In this document: in pieces, positions 25,561-52,051 of the stretch
Position numbering within the stretch: the stretch's first letter is position 1
How the letters are laid out: each line of letters begins with the position of its first letter
Sequence record: PZ445527.1
DNA: 64,000 nucleotides
Origin: a phage
Reading direction: 5' to 3' (one strand)
Made by a program: the position numbers and the translations under genes
The notes under the pieces: model-generated
Databases searched by the model: none
What the model saw: the letters and a program-made list of their open reading frames with translations, nothing else
What the model was told of the DNA's origin: nothing

Positions 25561-25648
25561 GTTTGGCTGGAGTGCCTGATTCAATCCCAGGCACCTTCGG
25601 AGTCAGAGGCCGACGACTTGACAATTGATCTACACCTCAAGAATACTA

Positions 25649-26075: not shown

Positions 26076-26100
26076 ATTTTATTTCCTATTTAAGTTAATT

Positions 26101-26177: not shown

Positions 26178-26543
26178 AATTGAAAACTCGCAGGGTTAGC
26201 GAAACCATCCTCAATTAGCATGTTCTAGAATACTAATCAAGTTATCTCCTATTGCACGCAGCTCAAGACGAGTACGAATTTTCAATTGTGGCGGCTCTCA
26301 GAAACTCTTCTATTCTAGCCTCAGAAGCTTACCCCCGAACGCATGTCGGGAAAGTCTTTCCAAGCGCATCAAATAGCACCGTTACACTTTGAGCCATTGA
26401 TGTATCAAGGAATAGAAGGACTTGAACCTTCATGAGTTAGACCATTTAACTCAACCGCTTTTTAGGGTATATTTCTAGGAGTGGATGTTCCTAGTAAACC
26501 TATTCGGCAGTCCCGTCTACCAATTCCGGCATATTCCAAGATT

Positions 26544-26638
26544 TGGAGGTAGGTAAGGGGATCGAACCATTACACCGTATCACTACGGTCAACCGATTTC
26601 AAGTCGGAGTCCATCGCCAGCCGTTGGATTGACCTACC
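26544..26638 (-). tRNA. tRNA-Ser (anticodon UGA), type II
   Basis: 7-bp perfect acceptor, anticodon loop CTTGAAA, long variable arm (ACCGTA/TACGGT), T-loop TTCGATC, CCA. Confidence 0.7.
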
Positions 26639-26650
26639 TTATAAATTGTT

Positions 26651-26735
26651 TGGTGGGTTAGGAGAGACTCGAACTCTCACGCACTTAAGCAAGGGCTTCT
26701 AAGACCCTCGTGGCTACCAATTACACCACTAACCC
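26651..26735 (-). tRNA. tRNA-Leu (anticodon UAG), type II
   Basis: 7-bp perfect acceptor, anticodon loop CTTAGAA, long variable arm, T-arm GAGAG-TTCGAGT-CTCTC, CCA. Confidence 0.7.
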
Positions 26736-26741
26736 CTAATT

Positions 26742-26816
26742 TGGTGGACAGTAGGAGAGTCGAACTCCTCACTCCTGAGTGCAAGTCAGGTATTTTCCCA
26801 GATAAACTAACCGCCC
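26742..26816 (-). tRNA. tRNA-Ala (anticodon UGC)
   Basis: Acceptor GGGCGGT with G3:U70 wobble (Ala identity element), anticodon stem CCTGA/TCAGG loop CTTGCAC, T-arm AGGAG-TTCGACT-CTCCT, CCA. Confidence 0.7.
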
Positions 26817-27055
26817 AAATTCTTTAATTTACTAAGGCTATTAGCTCGGCGTAACTACAGCACCTTCGCTTCAAGCGGAAGGAACCGCGTCATCTCGCAA
26901 ACCCAATACACTATTCAGTTGCCGCTGAATCTAGTGGACTAATCTAGAACTTCTCCCGAGTCGTAGGGATCGTGCTTTTTGGCAGCCAGTCCTAGGTCGA
27001 GCTAATACCTTAGTGAATTATGATGAGGATTTCTCCCATATCAATTTATATAAAT

Positions 27056-27084
27056 ATTATAACAAGAAATTAATCATCAAGCAA
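27056..27084 (-). promoter_or_regulatory. sigma70 promoter (TTGCTT-17-TATAAT) driving the tRNA block 26101-26816
   Basis: Minus strand consensus upstream of untranslated spacer and tRNAs. Confidence 0.65.
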
Positions 27085-27158
27085 TTGAGTTTTTCTTGAA
27101 ATTGGTAGCGGGTTCCAGTACTGCCCTGGACTTACTTAGCTTATGAGACTAAGAAGAA
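27083..27158 (-). ncRNA. tRNA-like sequence with CAU anticodon, 1:72 mismatch and non-canonical T-loop
   Basis: Acceptor 6/7 bp with CCA, anticodon loop CTCATAA; T-loop GGCAGTA lacks the T-psi-C pattern. Confidence 0.3.
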
Positions 27159-27165
27159 CTCTATG

Positions 27166-27260
27166 CCTTCCACCCGCAATTGTTTGGTTATTCTAGACAG
27201 GATTCGAACCTGTTATCACTTGTGCGGACTTACGAGAACCATTCTTTCACTCGAATCGAA
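27166..27260 (-). ncRNA. region with two T-loop-like motifs (GGTTCGAATCC and CGTTCGATTCG) that does not fold into a canonical tRNA
   Basis: Hand folding failed to find anticodon arm/acceptor pairing. Confidence 0.25.
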
Positions 27261-27431
27261 CGAGCTTCTGCCCTAGCCAAGCTGGTTTCCCCATCAACCA
27301 CGCTAGAATGTTTGATTGTTTTCAGTGCAAGAGTCCGAGTCTTGGACACGACCGTTTCGCAAGTACATAGGCAGCTTATCATGAGTCAGCACTTCCGAAT
27401 TGCTAGCCCCGTGTTCTGCACTGAAATTTTA

Positions 27432-27779
27432 TTAGTTTAACCGTAAAGTATTATCTAATTCACCATTAATTGTTCGGCATTCCTCTGGAATTGCTGGTGT
27501 GGCCTTGTATTCCCACCACTCAGCACCATCATATTCCCCACGTTCTAGCCAAGTTCCGTCGGCAAACCATACATTACCATAAAGTAATTGTCCACCGTAT
27601 CCAGAATCATACTCAAAGTCTAGGTTATCAAGAAAATCCTCAATATCTTCTTCTGTATAGCCTAAAGGTAATACCCAAACTTTTTTATCCCCATAATACC
27701 CGAATTCTATTTTAATACACTTAATTTTAGAATTGGTATTTTTTAAGGCAAGTAACAACTCTTCTTTAGCATTACGCAT
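27432..27779 (-). CDS. hypothetical protein 115 aa
   Basis: ORF track. Confidence 0.55.
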   Translation of the reverse strand: MRNAKEELLLALKNTNSKIKCIKIEFGYYGDKKVWVLPLGYTEEDIEDFLDNLDFEYDSGYGGQLLYGNVWFADGTWLERGEYDGAEWWEYKATPAIPEECRTINGELDNTLRLN

Positions 27780-27804
27780 AGTATATTCTCATACTGAATT
27801 AATT

Positions 27805-27881
27805 TGGCGCGACTGATGGGATTTGAACCCACATTCCCTCCCGTGATAGGGGAGTACCATTACCAAGCCAGCCACGGTCGC
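27805..27881 (-). tRNA. tRNA with unusual anticodon loop CTATCAC (anticodon AUC if folded conventionally)
   Basis: Acceptor 6/7 bp + CCA, T-arm GTGGG-TTCAAAT-CCCAT, anticodon stem CTCCC/GGGAG; A34 is atypical. Confidence 0.5.
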
Positions 27882-27890
27882 ATAATTTAT

Positions 27891-28076
27891 TTACTCAGCT
27901 TTGAGTTTTTCAATAGCTGCATTAAGTTCTTTAAGAAACTCTTTTCGTACATTAAGACGATTGAGACTTACTAGTATATCATGTTTAAGTTCTTCGATGT
28001 ATTTCTTCTCAACTTCAATATTGTTGATAGTGCTATCACGATGAACTTCTAGCTGCGCAATCACATTCTTGGACAT
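27891..28076 (-). CDS. hypothetical coiled-coil protein 61 aa
   Basis: ORF track. Confidence 0.4.
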   Translation of the reverse strand: MSKNVIAQLEVHRDSTINNIEVEKKYIEELKHDILVSLNRLNVRKEFLKELNAAIEKLKAE

Positions 28077-28178
28077 GCTTGTTTCCTCAGTTATTAATGA
28101 AAATGGTATCTGTGGCTGAATTAGATGTCAGCAATGATAGCTGGTTGGCTACCGGTTTACTTAACTCTACACAGAATT

Positions 28179-28260
28179 TGGCGGGCCGTGTAGGATTCGA
28201 ACCTACGTTGTCTTTCGACACGGATTAACAATCCGCCGCCAAACCGCTTGGCTAACGACC
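28179..28260 (-). tRNA. type II (long variable arm) tRNA with anticodon GUU
   Basis: 7-bp acceptor (one G-U), D-stem GCCA/TGGC, anticodon arm GCGGA-TTGTTAA-TCCGT, extra arm GTC-GAAA-GAC, T-arm GTAGG-TTCGAAT-CCTAC, CCA. Confidence 0.55.
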
Positions 28261-28416
28261 CTAAAAAATTTATATTGCTGACTAGGGTTTTCACCTAGAC
28301 GGAGTTAGCACCGTAGCGTGTAGCGGCATACCTCTCCAAACCGTGCCTCATCTTTCAATTACGGAGACAGTGTTCCTACGCGTGCCTGAATTGATTTAAC
28401 AATTCTTTCAGCAAAT

Positions 28417-28492
28417 TGGACGACCGCATGAGGATTGAACTCACATAAAAAGGATTTGCAATCCTTCGCCTAAGCCATTCAGCCAACGGTCG
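28417..28492 (-). tRNA. tRNA-Cys (anticodon GCA)
   Basis: 7-bp acceptor, anticodon stem AAGGA/TCCTT loop TTGCAAA, T-loop TTCAATC, CCA; 5' end overlaps stop of ORF 28479..28670. Confidence 0.65.
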
Positions 28493-28670
28493 ATTTATCT
28501 TGTTTTTCGAGATCTTCAAACTCTAAATCATTGAAGTTCCCTAGAGTACGGGTATAGAACCCATCCCCTGCGTCATAGCCTGATTTACCACAATCACACA
28601 TTTTAAATTCGCGCAGGTGTGTGAAAACATGTTCAGAACCACAACACTTAAATCTAACTAATCGTTTCAT
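28479..28670 (-). CDS. small zinc-finger-like protein 63 aa
   Basis: ORF track; CC...CDCGKSG. Confidence 0.4.
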   Translation of the reverse strand: MKRLVRFKCCGSEHVFTHLREFKMCDCGKSGYDAGDGFYTRTLGNFNDLEFEDLEKQDKSTVG

Positions 28671-28698
28671 TAGCTTCTCCAGTTCAATTTATGTAATT

Positions 28699-28727
28699 AT
28701 TATATAGAACTTTTGGGAACTAAGCAA
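28699..28727 (-). promoter_or_regulatory. sigma70 promoter (TTGCTT-17-TATAAT)
   Basis: Minus strand consensus. Confidence 0.65.
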
Positions 28728-29009
28728 CTACATTTTTTAAGAATTTGATGCCTTTCTTTTTCTTCTTATATTTCCACGTTAATGGATTCTGTCGATTATG
28801 AACGCTTGAGATCTTTGTCTCGTCAAAGTTCTTCAATATCATGTAATCACAAGATAATTGTTCTAGTGGAATGTGATCACCGTCAAAAGCGTATACATAA
28901 GGCTGTTGACTAGCACGATAATGATAGACTTTGTTAATTCTACGTTTCAGCGACTTATCCGCGCAGTAAATAAAGAAGTTTTAAGGGTGCATCAGCATCT
29001 CCTTCAATT

Positions 29010-29093
29010 TGGTGCATCGTGCTGGATTTGAACCACCAACCCCGAAGGGCACGGATTTACAGACCGCTGCAATAGCCATTCTGCCAACGATGC
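29010..29093 (-). tRNA. tRNA-Tyr (anticodon GUA), type II
   Basis: Perfect 7-bp acceptor, anticodon loop CTGTAAA, long variable arm (CCC-TTCG-GGG), T-loop TTCAAAT, CCA. Confidence 0.7.
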
Positions 29094-29221
29094 ACATTTA
29101 AAAGTATTCAAATACTAGTTTAAACACTTTTAAATATGTTTCCAAATTAGATAACTATTATACCAAGTTTTAAGGCACTGAGCAAGTCAGATTTTGAAGA
29201 ACTTGCTCAGTGCTGTATTAG

Positions 29222-29506
29222 TTAGTCGAACTTAGGAGTGACAGATAAGGAGAACGGAAGTTCAAAAACTTCTTCACCCTCATTACTAACGGTAACTACA
29301 CGACCTTTAAGTTCAGACATTAAAATATCAATATCAGCTTTTGCATCTGGAGCCATGCCAGCTTCAATACATTTAGCTTTAACTTCCGGTAAAAGCTCTA
29401 CGTTATAGAGATAGAGCCACTCAATCTCACCTTCCCAGTCTTCCCAGTCTTCCCAGGATTTGCAGATTGCACTTTCAATACCAGTTGCTACAACACGATT
29501 TTGCAT
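29222..29506 (-). CDS. hypothetical acidic protein 94 aa
   Basis: ORF track. Confidence 0.5.
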   Translation of the reverse strand: MQNRVVATGIESAICKSWEDWEDWEGEIEWLYLYNVELLPEVKAKCIEAGMAPDAKADIDILMSELKGRVVTVSNEGEEVFELPFSLSVTPKFD

Positions 29507-29596
29507 TCGTTAACTCCTTCATCAATTTATATAACTATTATACCAGAAATTTAAAGCAAAAGGCAAGTACATTTTTAAAAATTCTGTTTGGAGGAG

Positions 29597-29803
29597 CTAA
29601 ACTCCAGATTCTTCTGCCAAGTCTAGACTAATAAGAGTTATAGCCATAATTGCTGCACCGTGTTCTTTTTCTCCGGTGTTTTTAGCAGAGTCTATAATAT
29701 CCTTAATCTGTTCGTAATAACTTTTTACTTCTTGTTCAATGCCTGCCTCGGCTATCATGCCTTTAGTCATGAGTCGTTGCATGGTAATTTCAGTATTAGC
29801 CAT
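29597..29803 (-). CDS. hypothetical protein 68 aa
   Basis: ORF track; GGAG SD. Confidence 0.5.
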   Translation of the reverse strand: MANTEITMQRLMTKGMIAEAGIEQEVKSYYEQIKDIIDSAKNTGEKEHGAAIMAITLISLDLAEESGV

Positions 29804-29963
29804 GTTGTTTCTCCAGTTTCATTTTTAATAGTTTACAAATGAAATCAACGTCTTCATCCGTGCCTAGATCTCTATCTTCAAGGGTTGCCTTGAAATTTTT
29901 TGTTAGTTCCATAAGAATAACTTCCCTGGAACGACGTGTTGGCGGGGGTGGATGTCTATACAT
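29796..29963 (-). CDS. small proline-rich protein (55 aa)
   Basis: ATG with AAGGA SD, MYRHPPPPTRR...; below ORF track cut-off; overlaps next start by 8 nt. Confidence 0.4.
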   Translation of the reverse strand: MYRHPPPPTRRSREVILMELTKNFKATLEDRDLGTDEDVDFICKLLKMKLEKQHG

Positions 29964-29978
29964 CTTATTTCCTTAATT

Positions 29979-30053
29979 TGGTGGGTCGGAGGAGAATCTA
30001 ACTCCTACTCGTTAGCTTATGAGGCCACCGCTTTAACTTTAAGCTACCGACCC
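29979..30053 (-). tRNA. tRNA with CAU anticodon (Met or Ile-lysidine type) and atypical T-loop TTAGATT
   Basis: Perfect 7-bp acceptor GGGTCGG/CCGACCC, CCA, anticodon loop CTCATAA, T-stem AGGAG/CTCCT. Confidence 0.55.
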
Positions 30054-30059
30054 TATGTT

Positions 30060-30148
30060 TGGCGGAAGAAGTGGGAATCGAACCCACAAGGCTATATTTC
30101 AAACCGACAGATTAGCAATCTGCTGCAATACCGTTATGCTATTCTTCC
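30060..30148 (-). tRNA. tRNA-Ser (anticodon GCU), type II
   Basis: Perfect acceptor GGAAGAA/TTCTTCC, anticodon arm GCAGA-TTGCTAA-TCTGT, long variable arm, T-arm GTGGG-TTCGATT-CCCAC, CCA. Confidence 0.7.
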
Positions 30149-30162
30149 GAATTTATAAATAT

Positions 30163-30191
30163 ATTATATTAGAAATTTAGCTTCATAGCAA
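30163..30191 (-). promoter_or_regulatory. sigma70 promoter (TTGCTA-17-TATAAT) overlapping the 3' end of the upstream gene
   Basis: Minus strand consensus; would drive tRNAs 30148-29979. Confidence 0.6.
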
Positions 30192-30687
30192 GAAAATTTT
30201 TCAAGTTTTCGGTAGACATCTCATCCACATCTACAGGAGAAACAAATCCATTTAATTGTCTAGCAAATTTTTTACCAGCAGGATCATTATCCCCAACAGC
30301 TACCAATTTAAAAGGTAGTAATTTCAATTGCTTTAATAGCGCTTTTCCTGGAGAAGAACCCAACATTGCCAAGGCTGGATAACCAGCGTTATGTAACGCA
30401 ACTGCCTTAAATACAGATTCAGCAATCAATACCACTTTTTCATCTCCATTGAGAGTTTCTAGTCCCCATACACACTGTGTAGTAGAATAAGTAAAATATC
30501 TAGCTTCAAAGGGGCACTTACCATGACCTTTTGGAGCAGAAGGATTATAAGTCTGATAGCCTCTCAACATCCCAGAGAAGTCATACAATGGGACTGTTAG
30601 CCATCCTTCCGGGCTTAACCAGCAATGATATTTATCTGTATCAAACCCTCTAGATAAGAGATGTTCTGTTAGTTCATCAACAGTCAT
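30169..30687 (-). CDS. Toprim-domain protein 172 aa
   Basis: Conserved Glu (LIAESVF) and DxD (VGDNDPAGKK) spaced as in Toprim folds. Confidence 0.5.
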   Translation of the reverse strand: MTVDELTEHLLSRGFDTDKYHCWLSPEGWLTVPLYDFSGMLRGYQTYNPSAPKGHGKCPFEARYFTYSTTQCVWGLETLNGDEKVVLIAESVFKAVALHNAGYPALAMLGSSPGKALLKQLKLLPFKLVAVGDNDPAGKKFARQLNGFVSPVDVDEMSTENLKNFLAMKLNF

Positions 30688-30724
30688 ATTTGATCCCCTA
30701 GTTAGTTGTATAAATACATTATAC

Positions 30725-30758
30725 AGAAAAGCCCTGCGCTCTCCAGTGAACGCAGGGC
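30725..30758 (-). terminator. rho-independent terminator (gccctgcg...cgcagggc + U-tract)
   Basis: 8-bp GC stem followed by UUUU on minus strand, downstream of 30784..31731. Confidence 0.65.
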
Positions 30759-30783
30759 TTACTTCGAATATTACGTGTGGGTA

Positions 30784-31731
30784 TTACTTGTTACGCATAT
30801 CCATAATCATTTGGCCATCGTAACCAGTGCCAACCACAGTCTGCGGTACACCACCTTGATACTTCTGAGCACGAATCATTTCAACTTCTAGTTGCTTCCA
30901 GCGAATCATCTCAGGAGTAATGGTACGTTGCAGAGCGGCGTTAGCTTCAGCTTCTTTCTTAGCTGCGTACAGTTTAGCATCTGCATCACGTTCGTTTGCA
31001 ATAGCTTGGTTGTTACGAGCTTCACGATCTGCTTCTGCTTGTTTAACCTTCTGCTGTGCTTCTTGTTCAACACGAGCCAACTCAGCTTTCGCAGCATTAA
31101 CTTGTTCTTCACGAACTTTGGTATTCTGTACCTGTTCCATGATTACAGGCGGCAAAGTAATATCCTGAAGGAACACTTGCTTAACTGTGTAACCATAAGG
31201 GCGTGCATACTCTTCAACTTCCTGTTGAATTGCAGTTTGCAATTGAGCCTGAATTTTAGCATCAAACAAATCTTGTGCTTTAGGTACAGACTTACCAAAC
31301 TCACGAATAGTAGACAGTAATTTTTCAGTTACATACTTGTCTAGTGCCTGATCCTGAGTACCTGCATTAATACGGTTAATCGGTGCCTTAGAACCATCAA
31401 ACTGCAACATAACAGTCAGGTCAACAGTGGATTTAAACTTATCCTGACTAGGAACCTGAAGTTTATCTAATTTTACAGCAATATCTTTTGTACTGAAAGT
31501 ATCGAAAGATGCAAACGGGTTTACAATATGGAAACCAGGTAATACTGGATTAGGGTCTACTTTACCAAGAAATGTTTGGGTTTTAACCGTACCATCAGAA
31601 ACAATAGTATATGAATTAAAAGCTAGGATTAAACCTGCTAAACCAACTACAGCACCAATACCCCAACGTTTAATAGTACGGATTACTTTCTGCTCAGAAG
31701 TCAGTTCTTTCATATTTTTAGTAGCAAACAT
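30784..31731 (-). CDS. SPFH/band-7 (prohibitin/HflK-like) membrane protein 315 aa
   Basis: N-terminal TM helix, SPFH-like core, long Ala/Glu/Gln-rich coiled-coil C-terminus. Confidence 0.6.
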   Translation of the reverse strand: MFATKNMKELTSEQKVIRTIKRWGIGAVVGLAGLILAFNSYTIVSDGTVKTQTFLGKVDPNPVLPGFHIVNPFASFDTFSTKDIAVKLDKLQVPSQDKFKSTVDLTVMLQFDGSKAPINRINAGTQDQALDKYVTEKLLSTIREFGKSVPKAQDLFDAKIQAQLQTAIQQEVEEYARPYGYTVKQVFLQDITLPPVIMEQVQNTKVREEQVNAAKAELARVEQEAQQKVKQAEADREARNNQAIANERDADAKLYAAKKEAEANAALQRTITPEMIRWKQLEVEMIRAQKYQGGVPQTVVGTGYDGQMIMDMRNK

Positions 31732-31765
31732 ATATTTCCTTTGTTTTAGTTACAGTTAATAAAAT

Positions 31766-31839
31766 TGGCCGAGGTGACAGGATTCGAACCTGCATAAAGG
31801 AATTTAGAAGACTCCTGCCTCTCCCTTAGACTACACCCC
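31766..31839 (-). tRNA. tRNA-Arg (anticodon UCU)
   Basis: Acceptor 7 bp (one G-U), anticodon loop CTTCTAA, T-loop TTCGAAT, CCA. Confidence 0.6.
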
Positions 31840-32343
31840 GTTTAAGTATTTTTAAGAACTCTCGTAAAAACTCTTAAAAATACAGACGATACCGGGAGAG
31901 TCATAAGTCTCACTCATTAAGTATTTCAAGACAAAATACAGTAACGTCTATTATTTTCCAGTTTAAGTCAGGGTGACTTAGTGGTTATGTCCTGCGGTAT
32001 ATTGAGGACTCGGTTAGGCTTGGGGTCATGACTTCCCGCCTTTTGCTGCTACTCAACAGGAGTTATCGCGAATTACCTGTGCTATTGTGCACCATTAGTG
32101 ACATCTCTCATGCCAGCATTTCCCACTTTGTGGATAGCTTGAAAAACTACTCCGATACGGAGAAAGAACTTCACTATCCTAGAATACCTTCTAAAGTTCT
32201 TCTTTAGCCTGGACATAGTTAAATCGTAATAAAACTATTCAGCAGACCGGTTGGTTAGTCTGGAACCAACTACCGCGTGGTTTAGGCAGTGCGCAACTAA
32301 CCTCGGAAGCTTTTACGTTAAAAGCACCAGTTATCCAGTTCTT

Positions 32344-33662: not shown

Positions 33663-34484
33663 TTAAAATAGATCATATTCTAATCTATTGGGATTTTCTC
33701 GGTATCCATAAGACGTAAGAGTACCCCTCATATACTCTGCGTCAACAGGATTAGATGTTACTAGAACCACTTTTAGTGGTCTTTGACCTAAAAATAGTAT
33801 ATGATCTAATAAGTCTTTTCCTTGTACCTCTGGATCTCCTAAATCTGAGTCCATAAATAAATAGGATCCTGTGAAACTAAATATATCTGATAGTTCCAGC
33901 GCACCTATAACTGTACGACAAATAATGGACATTTCAGGTAGATCTCTAACATCGTCTATTAGAATATTGGTCTGCTTCCCAATTTCTGCATTACATAAAC
34001 CATTTACTAGTTTTTCTCTTTCCCCTTTAGCTTGTTCGAAAGTGGTGAAGCCAGGAGATACGAAAAACTTTCCACCTAATGTAATGCTATACACAAAACC
34101 CTCTGGGAGTAGTTCTACACCTACGGTTTTATTAGTATTAATCCTATTTAACTTAAAATTTGTCTCTCTTAGATTAATAATTCTGTTATCCCACGGTATA
34201 GTATTTATATGGTCGATCATATAAGGCGGCTCTTCACCATAATGGAGCAACCACGCTATTCGGTGTCCATAAATAATTGTGGGTTTATTATCTAAGAGCA
34301 AACTAACTCTGATGTACCCATCAGAGTTCTTACTACATATTTCTCTCCCAGCATATAGGGTGTGCCAAGTTTTATTCTTGTATTTATTAGGCTTATAAAA
34401 TAATTTACCGGTATAAGGATTATACTCTATAATTTCTCGAATATAATCTATATATGGTAGTATTTGTTTTTGTAATTTACCCAT
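33663..34484 (-). CDS. HNH endonuclease domain protein 273 aa
   Basis: N-terminal AP2-like segment and HNH motif (GHRIAWLLHYG...IDHINTIPWDNRIINLR). Confidence 0.6.
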   Translation of the reverse strand: MGKLQKQILPYIDYIREIIEYNPYTGKLFYKPNKYKNKTWHTLYAGREICSKNSDGYIRVSLLLDNKPTIIYGHRIAWLLHYGEEPPYMIDHINTIPWDNRIINLRETNFKLNRINTNKTVGVELLPEGFVYSITLGGKFFVSPGFTTFEQAKGEREKLVNGLCNAEIGKQTNILIDDVRDLPEMSIICRTVIGALELSDIFSFTGSYLFMDSDLGDPEVQGKDLLDHILFLGQRPLKVVLVTSNPVDAEYMRGTLTSYGYRENPNRLEYDLF

Positions 34485-42619: not shown

Positions 42620-43126
42620 TTATAAACTATCAAGCTCCAATAGTTTAGCATCACGCCATTCTATAGCATCCTCTAATTCTTTAAATGTTTTTGTATATTT
42701 TACGCCTTTACGAGCTATCTGGACTTGATATGATCCACTAGCTTTTTGATGAATATTTTTAATACCTAGCTTATTGTCTTTATGCGCCCCGACATTCTTT
42801 CCGTTACTGAATCTATCAGAAGCTACTAGGTTAATAGCTCTATTATCATGTCGTATTCTATTATCGTGGTCTACTTCAGGTGGCAGATACCCATGAATTT
42901 TAGCAAAGATTACCCTATGGGCTAAGTAGGGGTATCCTTTAATATTTAATACTATATATCCTGTAGATTTATCTAAGGAGCCTGCTGGTTTTCCGGCATA
43001 TTTGGTATTAAATGTTTTATTATCTCTAGGTCTATGAGTCAATATTCCAGTATATGGATCATAATCAAATAATTTAGCTACCTCTAGATGATCTTCTAAT
43101 GTTTTTGACATAATTATAATTTCCAA
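42620..43126 (-). CDS. HNH homing endonuclease 168 aa, free-standing between nrdA and nrdB
   Basis: AP2-like N-terminus (FDYDPYTGILTHR) and His/Asn core (EVDHDNRIRHDNRAINL). Confidence 0.7.
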   Translation of the reverse strand: MEIIIMSKTLEDHLEVAKLFDYDPYTGILTHRPRDNKTFNTKYAGKPAGSLDKSTGYIVLNIKGYPYLAHRVIFAKIHGYLPPEVDHDNRIRHDNRAINLVASDRFSNGKNVGAHKDNKLGIKNIHQKASGSYQVQIARKGVKYTKTFKELEDAIEWRDAKLLELDSL

Positions 43127-43175: not shown

Positions 43176-46100
43176 TTATAAGGTGCAGCCACCTGAAGAA
43201 CATCCTGTAGTTTCTCCAGCTCCTCCACCATTCGCAGTGTTAAAGTTAGCATAATACCAGGTTTTTATACCATACTTAACCGCAGTCATAAAGTCACGAA
43301 CTACTACTGGGCCAGGGATGATTTCATTCTCGAATTTAGAGTAATCATAATACATCTGGAAACTTGATGACTGACTCAAGAATTTTTGGTAAACGGCGTT
43401 CCACTTGATCCACTCAATACGATCTACATCATAGGCCAGTTTATAGCTCATGAGAGTATCCCAATCAGTTGCACCTGGGGCAATTGCAATTACTTTATTC
43501 ACTGCACTACCCTTGATAGATACAATCTTACGAGGTGGTTCAATAGAGTTAGTAACGCCTAACAGAACAGAGGAACTTTCTCCCGGCATCTGCGCAGTCA
43601 GAACAGAGTTACGCATACCGTATTTCAGAATGTCTGCACGCAGAGATTCCCAATCCATTTCTAGACCTACGGATACCAGCTCATCAACAGTTTTCTTATA
43701 CGTGTCGATTACCAGAATTCCTTTGGATGGTTTAGTACGATTAAACCATTCACATGCACCTTGTTCTTTAGCCAGACGTACAGAGGCTTTATGTAGGAAG
43801 TAAGACAGTTTTTCAGCTTCACGATGAATCCAGTTACGTGCTTCAACGCCTTCATAAGCCAAACCTTCCGCCGCCATTGCACCTGCTGCGTTCATCAGAC
43901 CAATACCAACATTACGACGTTTCTTAGCCGTATATTCCATAGTTGGGAACGGATAATCCTGAATTTCAATGATGGTATCAACGAATTTCAGGAGGATGTA
44001 GCAAGTTTTCTCCCACTCAGCCAGAGATTCCATGCGTCCTAGTACAACACCACCTAAGTTACACAGAGATACTTCACCAATATCCTCTGGCTTCATTTGA
44101 TCAAGCTGCTCTTTTGTCTTATACAGCTCTGTGATATGATGGAACGGGCGTGTAGGCTGAGTAATTTCTACACAGTTACCCGCTAAAATGCCATTAAATA
44201 CACCTAAGTTTAATTTAGGTTCTGTAAAGCAATAAGTATCACTAATACGACCAGTAAACTCAACGTTAGTTACAGTTACAAAACGGGTTGCGTCTCTATT
44301 GGGGCGTGTTAGGTTTAAGAGTTTCTCTTTATCCAAAGAGAGTCCTAAATCTTTAAGTTTCCAGAAGCCACTACTCCCCACAATAAGCCTACTAGTCTCC
44401 TTGCAGTGGTATAGTTTACTAGTACCAGTACCATCTGGTAACTCGTGGTCACCTTCTTTGCGTCCTAAAATAATCTTGCTAGTAACCCCCAATTCTAGTA
44501 ACAAATCCTTCACTTTACTTAGAAAATCAGGCTCTGCCGAAGCAACCACAATACTAGGAGTTGTGCCATTTTTCTGTATGCAGCCATCTGCATCTAAATA
44601 TCCCTCTAACCATTTGATACGGCTATCAATAGTATACTCTGGGCCAGGTACAAAATACTTCGGCATTAAATCAGACTTAACAATATAGCTCAGTCTACCT
44701 GTGCTGTCCAGTAATCCACTTCCCTGAATTTCTGCGTCAATTTTATCCACTAATGGTAGTTTGCCACCTTTTTCATAGAAGTACAGCTTAGGTTCTCCAT
44801 GTCTTCCATAAGTTCCATCTCCAGTGAAGAAACCGTTAGTATAAGGAGATTTTAGTACCATATTTCCATGATCTACAATAGGATTACTAAATTTAGGCAT
44901 TTTCATACCTACTTGCAAGTCTACTGCTCGTACCTCTTCTAGCCCCTGTTTGAAAGAGGTACGACGATCCTCTCTGACATATTTGGGCTGGTGGTAGAAC
45001 TTATGATAAAGAGTAGATTCAATAGTAGATCCATCAGAGAATGTGATTTTTATCAACTCCTGAGCTTCCCCAGTTTTAGTAGGGATAACTGTTGACCATT
45101 CTTGTCCGTTCCAAATCTCTACTTCTTTACCAACTAAATCAATAATCTCTATGTTACCATTTTTGGTTAAAATTTTTGTTTCTGGAGCTACACAAAGGTT
45201 TGTCATACGGATTGGATCAAGGAAGTTACCGTGACGATTAGATTCCCCGATGTGGTGCGCATACATACGTCCTGTTTCCATTCGGATACGTAGCCAAGTA
45301 TCTAGGATTTCTTTTGCAGAGACTTTAGGAGCTGCTGGAACTGTTTTTCCTTCGTGGTCGATCTTTGTAAGAGATGCCACACGTTTCTCCGCTGCCACGT
45401 AGATTTCTTCAAATTTAGCCTCGTCATCACTATAAAACGCTTCATGAACTTCTGGAGCATAGAAGTATGACATTAGCGTAATATCTTCATTTTTCAGATA
45501 ACGTTTTAACAAAAGATTGTTGAAGCTCAGAGAATAATCCATCTTATCAATTTTATTCTCGTCTGTAGCACGTTGTTGCTTAACCTGCATCAACTGAATG
45601 ATTTCAGGGTCAAAGTATGGATAAGACACTGTAGCAGAACCACCACGAGTTTGCTGAGTATTGGCCTTTACTGAGCGATCAATGTGTCGATAATATGGCA
45701 GTTTTCCGGAATGCGGGAATGCCCCATTTCGCACCGGATCAGCAATTGATCTGCTTTCAAGATGATACCCGATTCCCGCTCTGGCTGCAACCATTTTGAA
45801 GACGATGTGCTCGGCGGTGTCGATTGAATCCAACGTGTCAGTGGAATCCACGAGGCAGCAACTAGCAAATCCACGGTCACTAGAGCGCAGACCAACCAGT
45901 GGCGGCGTAGGAACGTTGATTTTGTGGAGCGACATTGCGTTGTAGAGGTCGATTGCATCTAGAATTGTCCAGTTAGGTTGAGATAACATCGCCATTGCCA
46001 TACCCATGTAGGCAAACTGCGGAGTTTCATAAATTTCACCAGTGGCTATGTTGCGGCGGGAATACTTATCAAAGAACTGCTTCAGTCCACCACTAGTAAA

Positions 46101-46523
46101 AAGACGGTCACGATCATGGTCGATAACCTGATTCAGAGCTTCAAATTGCTCATCGGTAATCCATGCACTCATGTCTTCCCATGCACCTACGCTAACCATG
46201 TGGTCATGGAAGAAGCGCAGAGAAGGTGGTTCGAAGGAATCATAAAGGCGTTTACGCATTTGCGCAAGACGTAATTCCTTTGCTGGCACATCGTATGCTG
46301 GGTTATCTTTGATAAGGCTTTCAGCAGCCTTAATTAATGCGTCCATCAGAGTGTCGGAATCTACAACCCCTTTAGGCAGAGTTTTTTGAGCAGCCATAGT
46401 AATGGCTGACCAACTTACATCAACTGTTTTGCAACCATACTCTGCCCAACCATTGAGTTTTTCAGGAGCAAAGTCTTCTACAGTACCGTCACGTTTAATT
46501 ACTTTTTCAATGCGATGGCTCAT
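43176..46523 (-). CDS. nrdA: ribonucleotide reductase class Ia large subunit (NrdA) containing a 340-aa intein
   Basis: ATP-cone start MSHRIEKVIKRDG (ORF track start trimmed to ATG 46523 behind a consensus promoter and SD), catalytic-site motif TNLC...VEI interrupted by intein; extein about 776 aa. Confidence 0.9.
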   Translation of the reverse strand: MSHRIEKVIKRDGTVEDFAPEKLNGWAEYGCKTVDVSWSAITMAAQKTLPKGVVDSDTLMDALIKAAESLIKDNPAYDVPAKELRLAQMRKRLYDSFEPPSLRFFHDHMVSVGAWEDMSAWITDEQFEALNQVIDHDRDRLFTSGGLKQFFDKYSRRNIATGEIYETPQFAYMGMAMAMLSQPNWTILDAIDLYNAMSLHKINVPTPPLVGLRSSDRGFASCCLVDSTDTLDSIDTAEHIVFKMVAARAGIGYHLESRSIADPVRNGAFPHSGKLPYYRHIDRSVKANTQQTRGGSATVSYPYFDPEIIQLMQVKQQRATDENKIDKMDYSLSFNNLLLKRYLKNEDITLMSYFYAPEVHEAFYSDDEAKFEEIYVAAEKRVASLTKIDHEGKTVPAAPKVSAKEILDTWLRIRMETGRMYAHHIGESNRHGNFLDPIRMTNLCVAPETKILTKNGNIEIIDLVGKEVEIWNGQEWSTVIPTKTGEAQELIKITFSDGSTIESTLYHKFYHQPKYVREDRRTSFKQGLEEVRAVDLQVGMKMPKFSNPIVDHGNMVLKSPYTNGFFTGDGTYGRHGEPKLYFYEKGGKLPLVDKIDAEIQGSGLLDSTGRLSYIVKSDLMPKYFVPGPEYTIDSRIKWLEGYLDADGCIQKNGTTPSIVVASAEPDFLSKVKDLLLELGVTSKIILGRKEGDHELPDGTGTSKLYHCKETSRLIVGSSGFWKLKDLGLSLDKEKLLNLTRPNRDATRFVTVTNVEFTGRISDTYCFTEPKLNLGVFNGILAGNCVEITQPTRPFHHITELYKTKEQLDQMKPEDIGEVSLCNLGGVVLGRMESLAEWEKTCYILLKFVDTIIEIQDYPFPTMEYTAKKRRNVGIGLMNAAGAMAAEGLAYEGVEARNWIHREAEKLSYFLHKASVRLAKEQGACEWFNRTKPSKGILVIDTYKKTVDELVSVGLEMDWESLRADILKYGMRNSVLTAQMPGESSSVLLGVTNSIEPPRKIVSIKGSAVNKVIAIAPGATDWDTLMSYKLAYDVDRIEWIKWNAVYQKFLSQSSSFQMYYDYSKFENEIIPGPVVVRDFMTAVKYGIKTWYYANFNTANGGGAGETTGCSSGGCTL
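44175..45194 (-). mobile_element. intein (340 aa) with LAGLIDADG homing-endonuclease domain, inserted at the NrdA catalytic Cys
   Basis: Starts with Cys (CVAPETKIL) right after TNL, ends ...ILAGN followed by +1 Cys (CVEITQP), restoring NLCVEI; LAGLIDADG-like blocks FFTGDG and LEGYLDADG. Confidence 0.8.
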
Positions 46524-46561
46524 TTGGTTTTCCTTTTTATAGTTATCAGGATTTAAGGAAT

Positions 46562-46590
46562 ATTCTACATTATTATTGGTCATTAGGCAA
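46562..46590 (-). promoter_or_regulatory. sigma70 promoter for nrdA (TTGCCT-17-TAGAAT)
   Basis: Minus strand; followed by AAAAGGAAAA SD and ATG at 46523. Confidence 0.6.
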
Positions 46591-46667
46591 ATAAAATTTT
46601 CTGATAGAAAAGGCCCGAGTATTTTCATACCCAGGCCCTCTGTGTTGTCAGTCTAGTTTTTGGCCAC

Positions 46668-47945: not shown

Positions 47946-48611
47946 ATGGTAAGAAAGAAAATAACTACAGAAGATGTGAACTTAGCACTTGCTCCCAGAG
48001 GAATAATTATGCTAAGCACGTATATATCAGCTAAATCCAATGCTATATTTAAGTGCTCTAATGGGCATAGTTGGGAGGCTAGAGTAGATAATGTAAAAGG
48101 TGGGAGAGGTTGCCCTTATTGTGCTAGTCGTACTTTAGATCTTAAAGAGGTAAATGAATCCTTAGCTGCTCGTGGAATAAAGATGGAAGGTAAATACATC
48201 AATTCTAAGAGTAAAATTATGTTCAGCTGTGAGAATGATCATAGGTGGGAGTCTACCCTTGATAGTGTTAGAAATCATAATTCTGGTTGTCCTATATGTT
48301 TATTAGAGAAGGATAATTATCCTACTAACGTATATATTTTAGTAAGTAGTATGGGAACCAAAATAGGGATGTCTAGCAGAACTAAAGATAGACTCAGAGA
48401 TATTAAAACTTCTTCTAACATACATGATTTAAAAATATTTAAGGAATATAGCTTTTCAGATAGATCAAAAGCTGTGCGTATTGAAAGAGAAGCCCATTTA
48501 CAGTTTAAGGAATATAATTGTCAGTACAAAGATTTTGATGGTGCTACAGAATTTTTTAGTATTGAGCCAGAAGTAGTAGCAAGGTTTATTGAGGAAATAA
48601 TTAATGAATAA
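47946..48611 (+). CDS. zinc-ribbon repeat + T5orf172 (GIY-YIG-related) domain protein 221 aa
   Basis: Two C..GH.W....G.GCP.C repeats (CSNGHSWEARVDNVKGGRGCPYC; CENDHRWESTLDSVRNHNSGCPIC) and a KIGMSSRTKDRLRDIKT segment. Confidence 0.6.
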   Translation: MVRKKITTEDVNLALAPRGIIMLSTYISAKSNAIFKCSNGHSWEARVDNVKGGRGCPYCASRTLDLKEVNESLAARGIKMEGKYINSKSKIMFSCENDHRWESTLDSVRNHNSGCPICLLEKDNYPTNVYILVSSMGTKIGMSSRTKDRLRDIKTSSNIHDLKIFKEYSFSDRSKAVRIEREAHLQFKEYNCQYKDFDGATEFFSIEPEVVARFIEEIINE

Positions 48612-50451
48612 AGATGAATTGATTAGAAACTGCAAAGAAATTATTGAGGGTTCTGCTGATGAAGAGCTTCTCTTTAATAATGCGAATAAACCCTCTGAGC
48701 GTTTCCCTACACAAAGGGATATGCTTGCAGGGGAATTGAGTAAATATCTGATTCTAGAAGAAATGCCAATTCAGATTCGAAATGCTCATATGATTGGAGA
48801 TATTCATTTCCATGATGCTGACTATGCTGCATTAGGCATGACTAACTGTTGCCTAGTAGCCCTGGAAGATATGTTGAAAAATGGTATGAAAGTTGGTAAT
48901 GCTGAAATTAGTACACCAAATTCTATTACTACTGCGGCGGCTATTACTGCTCAGATTATCACTCAGGTTAGCTCCCATCAGTATGGTGGTACTTCTGTAG
49001 ATCGCCTTGATGAAGTATTAGCCCCTTATGTTCGTAAGTCCTATGATAAAAATCATGCGTTTGCAAAACGTTGGACTAAGGATGAAGCTAAAGCATCTGT
49101 AATGGCTACGGAGATGACTGAAAAAGAAGTCTATGACGCTTGCCAGGGTTTAGAATATGAAATCAATACCATGTTCAACTCTAACGGTCAGAGTCCATTT
49201 ATTACCTTTGGTTTTGGTCTAGGAACTTCTTGGGAAGCACGTCTAGTACAGAAAGCAATACTGAAAGTACGCATGGATGGTTTAGGTATCAATAAACGTA
49301 CAGCTATCTTCCCGAAACTGGTATTTGTACTTCGTGATGGCGTAAATATGAAACCAGGGGATGTTAATTATGACATCAAGAAGTTAGCTATGAAATGTAC
49401 TGCTGAACGTATGTATCCAGATTATATCAGCTATGATAAGGTTGTGGAAGTTACTGGAGACTATAAAGTTTCTATGGGCTGCCGTTCATTCCTAGCTGCT
49501 GCAGAAGATGGTGAAACTGCCGGTCGTAATAACTTAGGTGTTGTTTCTGTAAACTTGCCTAGAATTGCTATCGAAGCTGAAGGAAATATTGACCTATTCT
49601 TTGATTTGCTTGAGCTACGTGTAGATACAGCATTAAAAGCGTTGGAGTGGAGAGTTGATCGCTTAAAATACATTCAAGCTAAAGCTGCACCCATCCTCTA
49701 TATGTCAGGAGCCTTTGGATTACGCTTAGGGCCTGATGAATATGTATTCGATCATTTCTATAACCGTGCTTCTGTATCTCTAGGGTATATTGGTTGCCAT
49801 GAAATGCTACAGTTCATGTTTGGCAAAGATGTAGACACAATGTCCGAGACCTGCATCAAGTTTGTTCAGCGTGTATTGCAGTACATGCGGGATAGAGTCG
49901 ATCAGAAGAAGGAAGAAACTAAGTTAGGTTATAGCCTGTATGCTACACCATCAGAGTCCCTATGTGATCGCTTTTGTCGTCTAGACCGTGAATATTTCCC
50001 GGAGCATGAAGATATTCTGTCCAAAGGATACTACACTAACTCTCACCACCTTGATGTGGAACGTAAAGTTGCCCCTAACGTGAAATTTGATTATGAATCT
50101 AACTTTACTCCGATTGCTTCTGGTGGGTGTATCTCTTATGTAGAACTACCAGATATGAAACGATTCCCGGATGCACTGGAATGGGTTATTAATTATGCTG
50201 CTAGTAAGGTTCATTACTTCGGTATTAATACTCCAGTGGATTCCTGTGGTAAATGTGGATTCTTAGGTGAAACAGTAGCATCCGAAGATGGATTCAAGTG
50301 CCCTATCTGTGGTAATCATGACCCTGAAACTCTTGAAGTAACTCGTCGAGTTTGTGGGTATCTTGGAAATCCAGGTGCTCGTCCGTTTAACCCAGGAAAA
50401 CAACATGAGGTTATGGGCAGGGTGAAACATCAGGATATTCGAGCTAAATAA
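48604..50451 (+). CDS. nrdD: anaerobic ribonucleoside-triphosphate reductase (NrdD) 615 aa
   Basis: C-terminal glycyl-radical motif RVCGYLG and Zn site CPICGN; size. Confidence 0.9.
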   Translation: MNKDELIRNCKEIIEGSADEELLFNNANKPSERFPTQRDMLAGELSKYLILEEMPIQIRNAHMIGDIHFHDADYAALGMTNCCLVALEDMLKNGMKVGNAEISTPNSITTAAAITAQIITQVSSHQYGGTSVDRLDEVLAPYVRKSYDKNHAFAKRWTKDEAKASVMATEMTEKEVYDACQGLEYEINTMFNSNGQSPFITFGFGLGTSWEARLVQKAILKVRMDGLGINKRTAIFPKLVFVLRDGVNMKPGDVNYDIKKLAMKCTAERMYPDYISYDKVVEVTGDYKVSMGCRSFLAAAEDGETAGRNNLGVVSVNLPRIAIEAEGNIDLFFDLLELRVDTALKALEWRVDRLKYIQAKAAPILYMSGAFGLRLGPDEYVFDHFYNRASVSLGYIGCHEMLQFMFGKDVDTMSETCIKFVQRVLQYMRDRVDQKKEETKLGYSLYATPSESLCDRFCRLDREYFPEHEDILSKGYYTNSHHLDVERKVAPNVKFDYESNFTPIASGGCISYVELPDMKRFPDALEWVINYAASKVHYFGINTPVDSCGKCGFLGETVASEDGFKCPICGNHDPETLEVTRRVCGYLGNPGARPFNPGKQHEVMGRVKHQDIRAK

Positions 50452-51211: not shown

Positions 51212-52051
51212 GTGAGGAACTGTACAGTGCGTAGATTAATTATTATTAGCGGTGCAGGTTTGAGCGTTGAAAGTGGTGTACGAGCCTTCCGTACTGATAC
51301 TGCTAGTGGTAAAGCATTGTGGGATGATTATGACTTAGAAGAGGTATGTAATATTCATGCCTTTCGTGGTAATTTTTATCATAAAACCCATATGTTTTAC
51401 AACAAGCGTCGTGAAGAGCTAAAAACTATTGAACCCAATCTTGCGCATCTTCGTATTGGTGAGTGGTATAAACAATACCCAGGTCAAGTAGTAAACTTGA
51501 CTACTAACGTCGATGACCTTATTGAGCGTGCTGGCGTTCCGCATAGTGACATTCTACATATTCATGGGTATTTAAAAGAGGTTGTTGTAGCTGACAGCTA
51601 CAATAGCAGTAATAAACGAGTTATTGATGTTGGGTATAGCTCTATTGACCCAGATGATTATAAATGGGTTAAACCTAATGTAATCTTCTTTGGTGAGCAT
51701 GCTCCAGCGTACGCAGAAATGTACAATATTTTTGATGGTATTACCAGTCAAGATATGATCGTTGTAGTTGGTTGCTCTAACCAAGTAATTAACTTCTACT
51801 GGGAATTATTCCCTGTTCTTAATTTGACTGCTGCCAAATTAATGGTAGTTAACTACTATGATAGTGCCCTAGCGACAGAGCCAGGCTATCAAGGTATGAC
51901 TCGTAGTGAGATGTACCAGCTGGAAGAACGCGGTATCCCTTACTGGAGTAAAGGGGCTGTAGATGCCTTCAGTGACCCTGATTTTATTACTCGTGTAGAA
52001 GCTCATCTAGAGGGTAGACCTTATATGCCGGGGAAACAAATATGTCCATAA
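51212..52051 (+). CDS. Sir2-family (sirtuin-like) NAD-dependent protein 279 aa, no zinc-ribbon cysteines
   Basis: GAGLSVESGVRAFR, TNVDDL and HIHG blocks; GTG start with GAAGGA SD; no CxxC pairs. Confidence 0.75.
   Translation: MRNCTVRRLIIISGAGLSVESGVRAFRTDTASGKALWDDYDLEEVCNIHAFRGNFYHKTHMFYNKRREELKTIEPNLAHLRIGEWYKQYPGQVVNLTTNVDDLIERAGVPHSDILHIHGYLKEVVVADSYNSSNKRVIDVGYSSIDPDDYKWVKPNVIFFGEHAPAYAEMYNIFDGITSQDMIVVVGCSNQVINFYWELFPVLNLTAAKLMVVNYYDSALATEPGYQGMTRSEMYQLEERGIPYWSKGAVDAFSDPDFITRVEAHLEGRPYMPGKQICP

Follow-up and report, generated by a model that had tools for sequence, protein, structure and literature searches.

A LAGLIDADG intein at the radical cysteine of a T5-like phage NrdA belongs to a long-known family of virus inteins

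The ribonucleotide reductase (RNR) of Chilo iridescent virus (CIV, IIV-6) carries an intein that has been described as "glutamine-type" (Pietrokovski 1998; Amitai et al. 2004, both as cited in PMC549080 and PMC4031507). This intein is reported to splice, and to do so less well after a Gln-to-Asn change at its end (PMC4031507). Among phages, gp203 of Vibrio phage ICP1 is an nrdA intein with a LAGLIDADG endonuclease (Barth et al. 2023, PMC10448857). An NrdA intein is also already known from Escherichia phage SelmaRatti (Bas34, MZ501103, BASEL collection), in which it is annotated as a mat_peptide "intein". Functional inteins that lack the usual penultimate His were treated by Chen, Benner and Perler (2000; cited in the review PMC4031507), and the review puts them at about 5% of functional inteins.

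Here we examined a 64,000-nucleotide stretch of phage DNA (PZ445527.1; hereafter the window), whose nrdA gene carries an insertion directly before the codon for the radical cysteine. The intein is real but ordinary, and it is a member of the long-known virus family. The SelmaRatti intein lies in the same gene, at the same insertion point and with the same boundaries (ending ...GILAGN/CVEI, where the slash marks the junction), and it is 97.4% identical in amino acids to the window intein; eight substitutions and an indel of one residue (341 versus 340 aa) separate the two, all of them outside the splicing blocks and the LAGLIDADG motifs. SelmaRatti lacks the HNH endonuclease gene that sits between nrdA and nrdB in the window phage. 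Compared with the presumed CIV intein (locus L012), the window intein was 43% identical over its full length (340 aa; E = 7e-89). The two occupy the same site (SNL/C...CSEI in CIV) and have in common a LAGLIDADG domain, the block F/G pattern TYCFTEP...GVFNGIL-GX, and Gly and Cys at G:6 and F:4, respectively. They differ in the terminal residue and in F:13, which are Gln and His in the CIV intein and both Asn in the window intein, and in their hosts, an insect iridovirus and an enterobacterial phage, respectively. Since the Gln-to-Asn change reportedly weakens splicing of the CIV intein, an Asn end in such a scaffold is not automatically efficient. The nrdA inteins of other phages likewise hold a LAGLIDADG endonuclease within nrdA, but they are 42 to 54% identical to the window intein and the majority end in Gly-Gln. 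The His-less inteins of Chen et al. resemble the window intein in having a residue other than His at G:6 while splicing still proceeds, as reported in PMC4031507; they differ from it in being unrelated and residing in other host proteins.

The nrdA gene and its insertion

The features of the locus are collected in Table 1. Translation from the ATG at 46523, which has the Shine-Dalgarno sequence AAGGA 8 nt before it, gave a precursor of 1115 aa plus stop with a computed mass of about 125.5 kDa; this corrects the 1116 aa of a first, sequence-only reading of this DNA. The open frame itself extends to 46628 (1150 aa). The protein matched Pfam Ribonuc_red_lgC (2.8e-112) and, in two stretches, NCBIfam NrdE_NrdA (570 bits), and the exteins retain every hallmark residue. 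The gene for the anaerobic reductase, nrdD, is encoded nearby (48604-50451). A 129-aa antisense frame (44299-44688, plus strand) was rejected as spurious, because it lies wholly inside an opposite-strand coding region under purifying selection.

Table 1. Features of the intein-containing nrdA locus (window positions)
Feature	Coordinates	Strand	Basis
nrdA precursor gene, class Ia ribonucleotide reductase alpha subunit	43176..46523	(-)	ORF, Pfam, NCBIfam
N-extein, NrdA residues 1-443, ends ...PIRMTNL	45195..46523	(-)	Alignment to BF23 NrdA and E. coli R1
Intein, 340 aa, about 37.9 kDa; HINT domain split around LAGLIDADG endonuclease	44175..45194	(-)	Domain matches, AlphaFold, Foldseek
Cys1 codon, N-terminal nucleophile, block A	45192..45194	(-)	Read from sequence; Cys in 86/86 relatives
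Block B TLYH, Thr61 (B:7) and His64 (B:10), predicted to activate the N-terminal splice junction	45003..45014	(-)	Invariant in 86/86 relatives
LAGLIDADG homing endonuclease domain, roughly intein residues 110-300	44295..44867	(-)	Pfam, AlphaFold secondary structure, Foldseek
First LAGLIDADG motif PYTNGFFTGDG, acidic Asp126	44814..44846	(-)	Asp in 82/86 relatives
Second LAGLIDADG motif WLEGYLDADG, acidic Asp203	44583..44612	(-)	Asp in 84/86 relatives
Blocks F and G, TYCFTEPKLNLGVFNGILAGN: Cys322 F:4, Asn329 F:13, Ala338 G:5, Gly339 G:6, Asn340 G:7	44175..44237	(-)	Sequence, relatives
Cys+1 codon, C-extein nucleophile and NrdA thiyl-radical Cys	44172..44174	(-)	Sequence, BF23 and R1 alignments
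C-extein, 332 aa plus stop, begins CVEITQPT	43176..44174	(-)	Alignments to BF23 NrdA and E. coli R1

The insert corresponds to NrdA residues 444-783 and is free of stops over its 340 codons. It begins CVAPETKILT and ends GVFNGILAGN, with TNL before it and CVEITQ after it, so that the two junctions read ...RMTNL/CVAPETKIL and GVFNGILAGN/CVEITQ. When the protein was aligned by MAFFT with the intein-less NrdA of phage BF23, a single clean gap of 340 aa fell exactly between TNL and CVEI, and at the DNA level the gap was found at the identical position in three intein-less T5-like phages (BF23, T5_ev219, and H8), whose exteins are about 89 to 99% identical in DNA to those of the window. The residue after the insert, Cys+1, aligned with Cys439 of E. 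coli R1 (SNLCLEI; R1 residue numbers counted from chain position 392). Removal of the 340 aa in silico restored TNL-CVEI, that is, the NLCVEI motif carried by the three intein-less phages, and would yield a spliced NrdA of 775 aa (87.6 kDa) with the predicted junction peptide ...IRMTNLCVEITQ... (in extended form, IRMTNLCVEITQPTR). The predicted homing target in the intein-less nrdA of BF23 or T5 is ATGACAAACCTT followed, beyond the insertion point, by TGTGTTGAAATTACTCAG. The sequence-only reading had proposed an intein at 44175-45194 at the catalytic cysteine, a 340-aa insert with Cys directly after TNL and AGN before the next Cys, and restoration of NLCVEI upon its removal, and the translation and the alignments with BF23 and R1 agreed with it on all of these.

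Splicing motifs, endonuclease domain and predicted fold

The motifs that define class-1 inteins were located in the insert. Cys1 provides the N-terminal Cys or Ser, T61-L-Y-H64 the Thr-x-x-His of block B, and Asn340 followed by Cys+1 the C-terminal Asn, Gln or Asp before a Cys, Ser or Thr. The His at the penultimate position (G:6), which is common and not obligatory, is absent from the window copy and replaced by Gly339, and the block F helper His (F:13) is likewise absent, with Asn329 in its place; the lack of both helpers of the C-terminal step was counted against splicing. The N-terminal part matched the NCBIfam model intein_Nterm at 35.2 bits (cut-off 24.5), and the intein C-terminal model of NCBIfam gave no match to the window intein. 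Blocks F and G aligned without gaps to what we take to be the block F/G sequence of Ssp DnaB, and their hairpin register matched the strands of the AlphaFold model. We therefore read the miss of the C-terminal model as divergence of block G and not as absence of the region. Class 2 (KlbA-type, with Ala1 and direct attack by Cys+1) and class 3 were both rejected, as Cys1 is present; of the class 3 triplet Trp(B:12)-Cys(F:4)-Thr(G:5), the window has Phe66, Cys322 and Ala338, and only the Cys fits.

The endonuclease was recognized from two LAGLIDADG-like blocks, GFFTGDG at intein residues 121-127 and YLDADG at 199-204, and from a match to Pfam LAGLIDADG_3 on residues 194-280 (E = 7.7e-14). Each block supplies an acidic residue (D126 and D203), the helices of the model lie at the places expected for a two-motif enzyme, and the endonuclease region of the model has alpha/beta secondary structure. 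The AlphaFold model of the intein reached a pLDDT of 90.1 and a pTM of 0.90, and its best Foldseek matches were the TliVMA, PI-SceI and PI-PfuI inteins (E = 7e-15 to 1e-9), all of them intein-endonucleases. A HINT fold was supported by matches that included complete inteins as well as two mini-inteins (Ssp DnaB and Npu DnaB), and partial matches were obtained to I-DmoI and I-Tsp061I. At the sequence level, a phmmer search with just the intein returned no more than a chance match among PDB sequences, and a family profile was needed to retrieve PI-PfuI (1dq3; E = 1.6e-14) and VMA inteins, while PHROGs gave nothing beyond a weak "endonuclease" match (E = 0.0047). PI-PfuI (the P. furiosus RNR intein), TliVMA and PI-SceI, matched by Foldseek at E = 7e-15 to 4e-11, have the same two-part architecture of HINT and LAGLIDADG domains as the window intein but differ from it in sequence (12 to 17% identity in structural alignment) and in length (366 to 454 versus 340 residues). 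Thus the two endonuclease blocks and the Gly-Asn (not His-Asn) end claimed earlier were borne out, the latter being read directly as Gly339 and Asn340, and the comparison with intein families suggested at that time yielded an intein profile match and the Foldseek intein matches.

Judged by its motifs and its modeled fold, the insert is a standard class-1 intein that contains a homing endonuclease with two LAGLIDADG motifs. With considerable confidence, resting on conservation and on relatives, we propose that it is a mobile element of Tequintavirus nrdA, placed directly before the radical cysteine and able both to splice and to home. In the 125-kDa precursor, Cys1 would undergo an N-S acyl shift aided by Thr61 and His64, and trans-thioesterification would then pass the N-extein to Cys+1, the future active-site cysteine. 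Cyclization of Asn340, taking place without the usual penultimate His as across the family that contains the CIV intein, would free the 38-kDa intein, and an S-N shift would produce the 775-aa NrdA with NLCVEI intact. The freed intein or the precursor would be expected to cut the intein-less nrdA of co-infecting T5-like phages between TNL and CVEI, and repair from the intein-bearing copy would spread the intein.

A reductase intein family and the C-terminal step

Relatives were found by tblastn in 341 phage records, 92 of them from Vibrio phages, and all six phage relatives examined sit at NLC/xEI (here the slash follows the catalytic Cys). The family analysis was made on a set of 86 parsed relatives. 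In 82 of these, including the presumed CIV locus, the intein is inserted right after Asn-Leu (once Asn-Met) before the catalytic cysteine; at two loci (L074 and L076) it follows VNP, and two others (L020 and L021) were parsed too far upstream but follow SNL. All 86 carry Cys1, Thr at B:7, His at B:10, Cys at F:4 and Cys+1; F:13 is His in 49, and G:5 is Thr in 74. The C-terminal dipeptides are GQ (54), GN (18), SQ (12), MN (1) and KN (1). None of the 86 has a penultimate His, so the Gly before the terminal Asn is a family trait; the sequence-only reading, which had suggested a non-canonical C-terminal mechanism, was right in the narrow sense that the His is missing, which is not unusual for this family. 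The window intein does not fit the "glutamine type", as it ends in Asn340, and with 20 of the 86 ending in Asn, a C-terminal Gln is typical of the family and not universal. In a neighbor-joining tree the Asn state occurs in at least 8 clades, and the terminal residue co-varies with F:13, with Asn paired to Asn and Gln to His (Fisher p = 1e-5, a value that ignores phylogeny). Proteus phage PM135 (54% identical) and several giant-virus contigs likewise combine Gly-Asn with Asn at F:13.

The same data bear on three other readings of the insert. That it might be a native insertion domain of NrdA, retained in the protein, deserves almost no credence: nothing but the bare in-frame insertion speaks for it, while the segment splits the active-site motif at the radical cysteine, is missing in about 99% of closely related phages, and has the fold and motifs of an intein, so that the outcome named beforehand as fatal to the intein reading (a native insertion without intein blocks) was not what the alignment and the motifs gave. 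Very improbable, too, is a splicing-defective or decaying intein that leaves NrdA interrupted and inactive, the phage relying on the host reductase and its own NrdD. The absence of His from both G:6 and F:13, the unmatched C-terminal model, the nearby nrdD gene together with a host that has its own RNR, and the reportedly poorer performance of the CIV intein with Asn than with Gln (PMC4031507) are consistent with such decay, but the 1020-base frame is open in all five T5-like records that carry the intein, dN/dS is 0.07 to 0.27, all nucleophiles are intact, as are the two endonuclease Asp residues, and the exteins keep their hallmark residues and the 570-bit match to the NrdA equivalog model. 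Moreover, the recurrence of Gly-Asn with F:13-Asn in PM135 and the giant-virus contigs argues for a maintained, working state.

More of the family data touch on a conditional or assisted intein in which the invariant Cys322 (F:4), located between both splice junctions, takes part in catalysis. This cysteine could serve as a class-3-like acyl relay, activate Cys+1, or pair with Cys1 or Cys+1 in a reversible disulfide; the output of active NrdA would then be redox-dependent, and Asn cyclization would proceed via non-His residues. Standard inteins usually have Asp at F:4 (PMC2807308; PMC4031507), and the Cys found there in all 86 relatives, the Thr at G:5 in 74, the five relatives that combine the full Trp-Cys-Thr triplet with Cys1, the lack of either helper His in the window copy, the co-variation of the terminal residue with F:13, and the presence of the Asn state in at least 8 clades all point in this direction. 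Against it stands the class-1 signature, an invariant Cys1 together with an invariant Thr and His in block B. Class 3 inteins are defined by a missing N-terminal nucleophile, and Cys1 is present; with Phe at B:12 and Ala at G:5, the triplet is incomplete in the window copy, and the literature examined gave no experimental sign that the family is under redox control. We therefore consider an assisted intein unlikely. It is doubtful that C-terminal cleavage in the enterobacterial-phage branch (the window, SelmaRatti, SP3, Kenya-K36, and Proteus PM135, with Gly at G:6 and Asn at F:13) proceeds with neither helper His by depending on the F:4 Cys or other residues; if it did, the Asn/Asn and Gln/His pairings of terminal residue and F:13 would mark two catalytic solutions that can replace each other in the same intein family. 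A redox-sensitive trio of Cys1, Cys322 and Cys+1 that controls when the phage reductase becomes active is a further, similarly doubtful possibility.

Distribution and significance among T5-like phages

The standard class-1 intein favored here was present in 5 of 529 T5-like records, and orthologous copies were found in Salmonella phages SP3, Kenya-K36 and Kenya-K42. So few carriers, which count against the mobile-intein reading, suggest that homing is either recent or inefficient. The dN/dS values given above, obtained on four T5-like intein copies, indicate purifying selection. The T5-like copies differ from the window intein at about 2.1% of bases, as against 2.2 to 11% for their own flanking exteins, and with a single exception the flanking extein segments compared were more diverged than the intein copies; the low divergence of the copies fits recent homing. 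The GC content is 38.6% in the intein and 42.6 to 44.5% in the exteins.

The correct label for this gene is an intein-containing NrdA precursor, with a mature product of 775 aa and an intein/homing endonuclease of 340 aa, and beyond correct annotation the NrdA intein matters little. For intein specialists, the natural variation at the C-terminal cleavage site (Gln/Asn and His/Asn) is of modest interest, and with an invariant F:4 Cys beside Cys1 the family is a possible comparative system for His-free cyclization of Asn or Gln. Being rare and less diverged than nearly all of its flanks, the intein may be usable as a marker of recent gene flow among T5-like phages.

The nrdA locus and the boundaries of its insert

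At the DNA level, the nrdA region was most similar to that of Escherichia phage SelmaRatti (Tequintavirus; 96.3% identity) among 529 matching phage records, and by its sequence the region is from a T5-like phage; the neighborhood comprises genes for thymidylate synthase and dihydrofolate reductase, nrdB, nrdA, phoH, and nrdD. The ATG at 46523 matches the E. coli NrdA start and is preceded, at a distance of 8 nt, by an AAGGA ribosome-binding site; from this ATG, NrdA is 1115 aa, not the 1116 aa given by the sequence-only reading. The annotated start (region 46523-46628 (-)) differs among public records: BF23 and Kenya-K36 begin at a far upstream ATG (MKILGPF...), SelmaRatti begins at an intermediate ATG (MTENKV...), and the SP3 start (MSNRIEK) is the one matching E. 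coli NrdA; within the window, this start has the best ribosome-binding site.

Translation of the insert gave 340 stop-free residues (CVAPETKILT...GVFNGILAGN), preceded by ...PIRMTNL and followed by CVEITQPT.... Since the insert-free NrdA of BF23 aligned with no other gap in the region, the insert consists of precisely these 340 codons, in agreement with the length and placement proposed earlier. The DNA of BF23, T5_ev219, and H8 is continuous across the site (...ATGACAAACCTT joined directly to TGTGTTGAA...), confirming that removal restores NLCVEI. The Cys after the insert aligned with Cys439 of E. coli R1 (SNLC439LEI), the thiyl-radical residue, as expected from the proposed insertion at the catalytic Cys. 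Both LAGLIDADG-like blocks and the Gly-Asn end were also found; the finding of the sequence-only reading is real, and its interpretation is correct.

Features of the nrdA intein (intein residues; standard block positions) and of the window (nucleotides)
Feature	Position	Strand	Remark
nrdA open frame	46628 to 43176	-	
nrdA intein	44175-45194	-	
Block A	Cys1		N-terminal nucleophile
B:7	Thr61		N-terminal junction activation
B:10	His64		N-terminal junction activation
B:12	Phe66		class 3 inteins have Trp
F:4	Cys322		Asp is usual in standard inteins
F:13	Asn329		usually His
G:5	Ala338		most relatives have Thr
G:6	Gly339		usually His
G:7	Asn340		cyclizes, freeing intein
+1	Cys		C-extein nucleophile, NrdA radical Cys
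LAGLIDADG-type motifs	121-127; 199-204		GFFTGDG; YLDADG
Endonuclease acidic residues (LAGLIDADG)	Asp126, Asp203		
HNH gene	42620-43126	-	168 aa, between nrdA and nrdB
221-aa ORF	47946-48611	+	directly upstream of nrdD, overlapping its start
273-aa ORF	33663-34484	-	HNH_3 and cREC_REC domains
279-aa ORF	51212-52051	+	Sir2 family, E 2e-24
tRNA cluster	25483-31840	-	12 genes
tRNA-Asp (ATC)	27805-27881		ARAGORN

Intein identity and relatives

The NCBIfam intein_Nterm model matched insert residues 1-67 at 35.2 bits (cut-off, 24.5 bits), and Pfam LAGLIDADG_3 matched the insert with an E of 7.7e-14. A family profile of the window intein and 29 database relatives matched PI-PfuI, the Pyrococcus furiosus RNR intein (PDB 1dq3; E 1.6e-14), as well as VMA inteins, PI-PkoII, and several mini-inteins. 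The AlphaFold model obtained from the family alignment was confident (mean pLDDT 90.1, pTM 0.90), and its top Foldseek matches in the PDB were all intein-endonucleases (TliVMA at 7e-15, then PI-SceI, PI-PfuI, and PhoVMA), with partial matches to I-DmoI-type LAGLIDADG enzymes and DnaB mini-inteins. A native NrdA insertion domain is excluded by the intein-less alleles together with the intein fold.

The insert was present in 5 of the 529 matching records (SelmaRatti, Kenya-K36, Kenya-K42, and two records of SP3). In SelmaRatti (MZ501103, BASEL collection) the gene is labeled 'intein-containing ribonucleoside diphosphate reductase alpha subunit precursor' and carries a mat_peptide 'intein' of 1023 bases, whose boundaries are exactly those in the window once the one additional Ser of the SelmaRatti copy is taken into account; inteins were precisely identified during annotation of that collection (PMC8594841). 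Neither the nrdA intein of the window nor its family is new: the record of a close relative already annotates the element.

Relatives were detected by tblastn in 341 phage records (Rheinheimera, Vibrio, Caulobacter, Bacillus, Staphylococcus, Acinetobacter, Proteus, and other hosts), and an IMG/VR scan added 176 loci, many on giant-virus contigs. Almost all inspected relatives lie between N-L and C-x-E-I and begin with Cys; two loci (L074 and L076) have the insertion after VNP instead. LAGLIDADG endonucleases within nrdA inteins are common in phages, e.g., ICP1 gp203 (2023 study, PMC10448857). The intein that we take to be that of Chilo iridescent virus (CIV, invertebrate iridescent virus 6) shares 43% identity with that of the window along its full length (E 7e-89) and ends in ...TYCFTEPINHAGVFNGILTGQ, followed by CSEI. 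The CIV RNR intein is a classical 'glutamine-type' intein (PMC549080) that splices, native Gln serving better than Asn (review, PMC4031507).

Five close relatives in metagenomic proteins (P0005, P0006, P0007, P0016, and P0044; 29-38% identity, mostly full length) lie inside NrdB, the small subunit, where they follow the iron-ligand motif E-A-x-H, and end in ...GVFNGILTGQ before SETY, with Ser at +1. Therefore, one intein family has colonized both reductase subunits.

The C-terminal residues and predicted splicing

Numbering of blocks F and G was based on a gap-free alignment to the Ssp DnaB mini-intein and on the terminal hairpin of the model (strands at residues 330-333 and 336-339, Asn-Gly turn). 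Across 86 parsed family members (the window, six phage loci, and 79 IMG/VR loci), the last two residues were Gly-Gln in 54, Gly-Asn in 18, Ser-Gln in 12, and Met-Asn and Lys-Asn in one each, while Cys1, Thr B:7, His B:10, Cys F:4, and Cys+1 were invariant (86/86). A penultimate His occurred in 0/86, so its absence is a family trait and not an oddity of the window phage; about 5% of functional inteins have a residue other than His at G:6 (PMC4031507). Position F:13 was Asn in 16, His in 3, and Gly in 1 of the Asn-ending members, versus Asn in 16, His in 46, and another residue in 4 (3 Gly, 1 Lys) of those ending in Gln. The two positions covary (loci L010-L089, window 44175-44237; Fisher's exact p = 1e-5, uncorrected for shared ancestry), and the Asn-ending state appeared in at least eight separate clades of a neighbor-joining tree. 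CIV combines a Gln end with His at F:13, whereas the T5-like and Proteus PM135 copies combine an Asn end with Asn at F:13.

From this anatomy we infer the splicing steps. Cys1, aided by Thr61 and His64, would undergo the N-S acyl shift, attack by Cys+1 would form the branched intermediate, Asn340 would cyclize without a His at G:6 or F:13, and an S-N shift would restore NLCVEI and the radical cysteine. The 125.5-kDa precursor is predicted to yield NrdA of 87.6 kDa and an intein of 37.9 kDa (calculated masses).

It is conceivable that splicing is assisted by the F:4 Cys or is redox-gated. This Cys is invariant in the family, and five loci (L014, L017, L036, L052, and L061) have the full class 3 triplet, Trp(B:12)-Cys(F:4)-Thr(G:5), while retaining Cys1, Thr-x-x-His, and Cys+1. 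However, what defines class 3 is that an N-terminal nucleophile is missing (PMC2807308), and the window intein has one. Judged by sequence signatures, the family straddles class 1 and class 3. That the intein is dead in the window phage is unlikely in view of the selection data: the four T5-like copies differed by 14-22 bases per pair, mostly synonymously (dN/dS 0.07-0.27), and showed no changes in the splicing blocks or LAGLIDADG motifs.

Mobile endonucleases and probable homing

The free-standing HNH gene (Pfam HNH_3, E 8e-9) has a very low GC3 (0.20); it is absent from SelmaRatti, BF23, SP3, and Kenya-K36, and in phC17, H8, and S124 the same position is occupied by this gene, with the annotation homing endonuclease. 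Together with the intein endonuclease, it makes two independent mobile endonucleases at the nrdA-nrdB locus. The 221-aa ORF has T5orf172, MUG113, and DUF4379 zinc-finger domains and probably represents a further gene of the homing-endonuclease type; at the corresponding position, SelmaRatti has a 'putative homing endonuclease'. The NrdA of Salmonella phage SP3 (1422 aa) carries a second, unrelated 304-aa insert (residues ~304-607) between NTQQ and SRGGSA, running CYSADTEVL...VYCVEVPTNKLVVRRNGHTTVCGN. It looks like an intein by its block A-like start and TPNH block B, and it also has a Gly-Asn end and a Cys at an F:4-like position; no Pfam match was found in it. Elsewhere in the window, the 273-aa ORF pairs its endonuclease unusually with a cyclic-phosphate processing receiver domain, the Sir2-family ORF lies in the phage early/replication region, and one tRNA of the cluster, reported by ARAGORN as tRNA-Asp, has an unusual A34 anticodon, which may be a miscall or mark a modified or decoy tRNA.

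Intein copies differed from that of the window at ~2.1% of bases, compared with 2.2-3.2% for the N-exteins and 5.8-11.2% for the C-exteins of the same phages, a pattern that would be expected from recent horizontal spread by homing. The G+C content was 38.6% in the intein versus 42.6-44.5% in the exteins. Both catalytic Asp residues of the LAGLIDADG domain are intact, and the domain would be expected to cleave intein-less nrdA alleles in co-infection.
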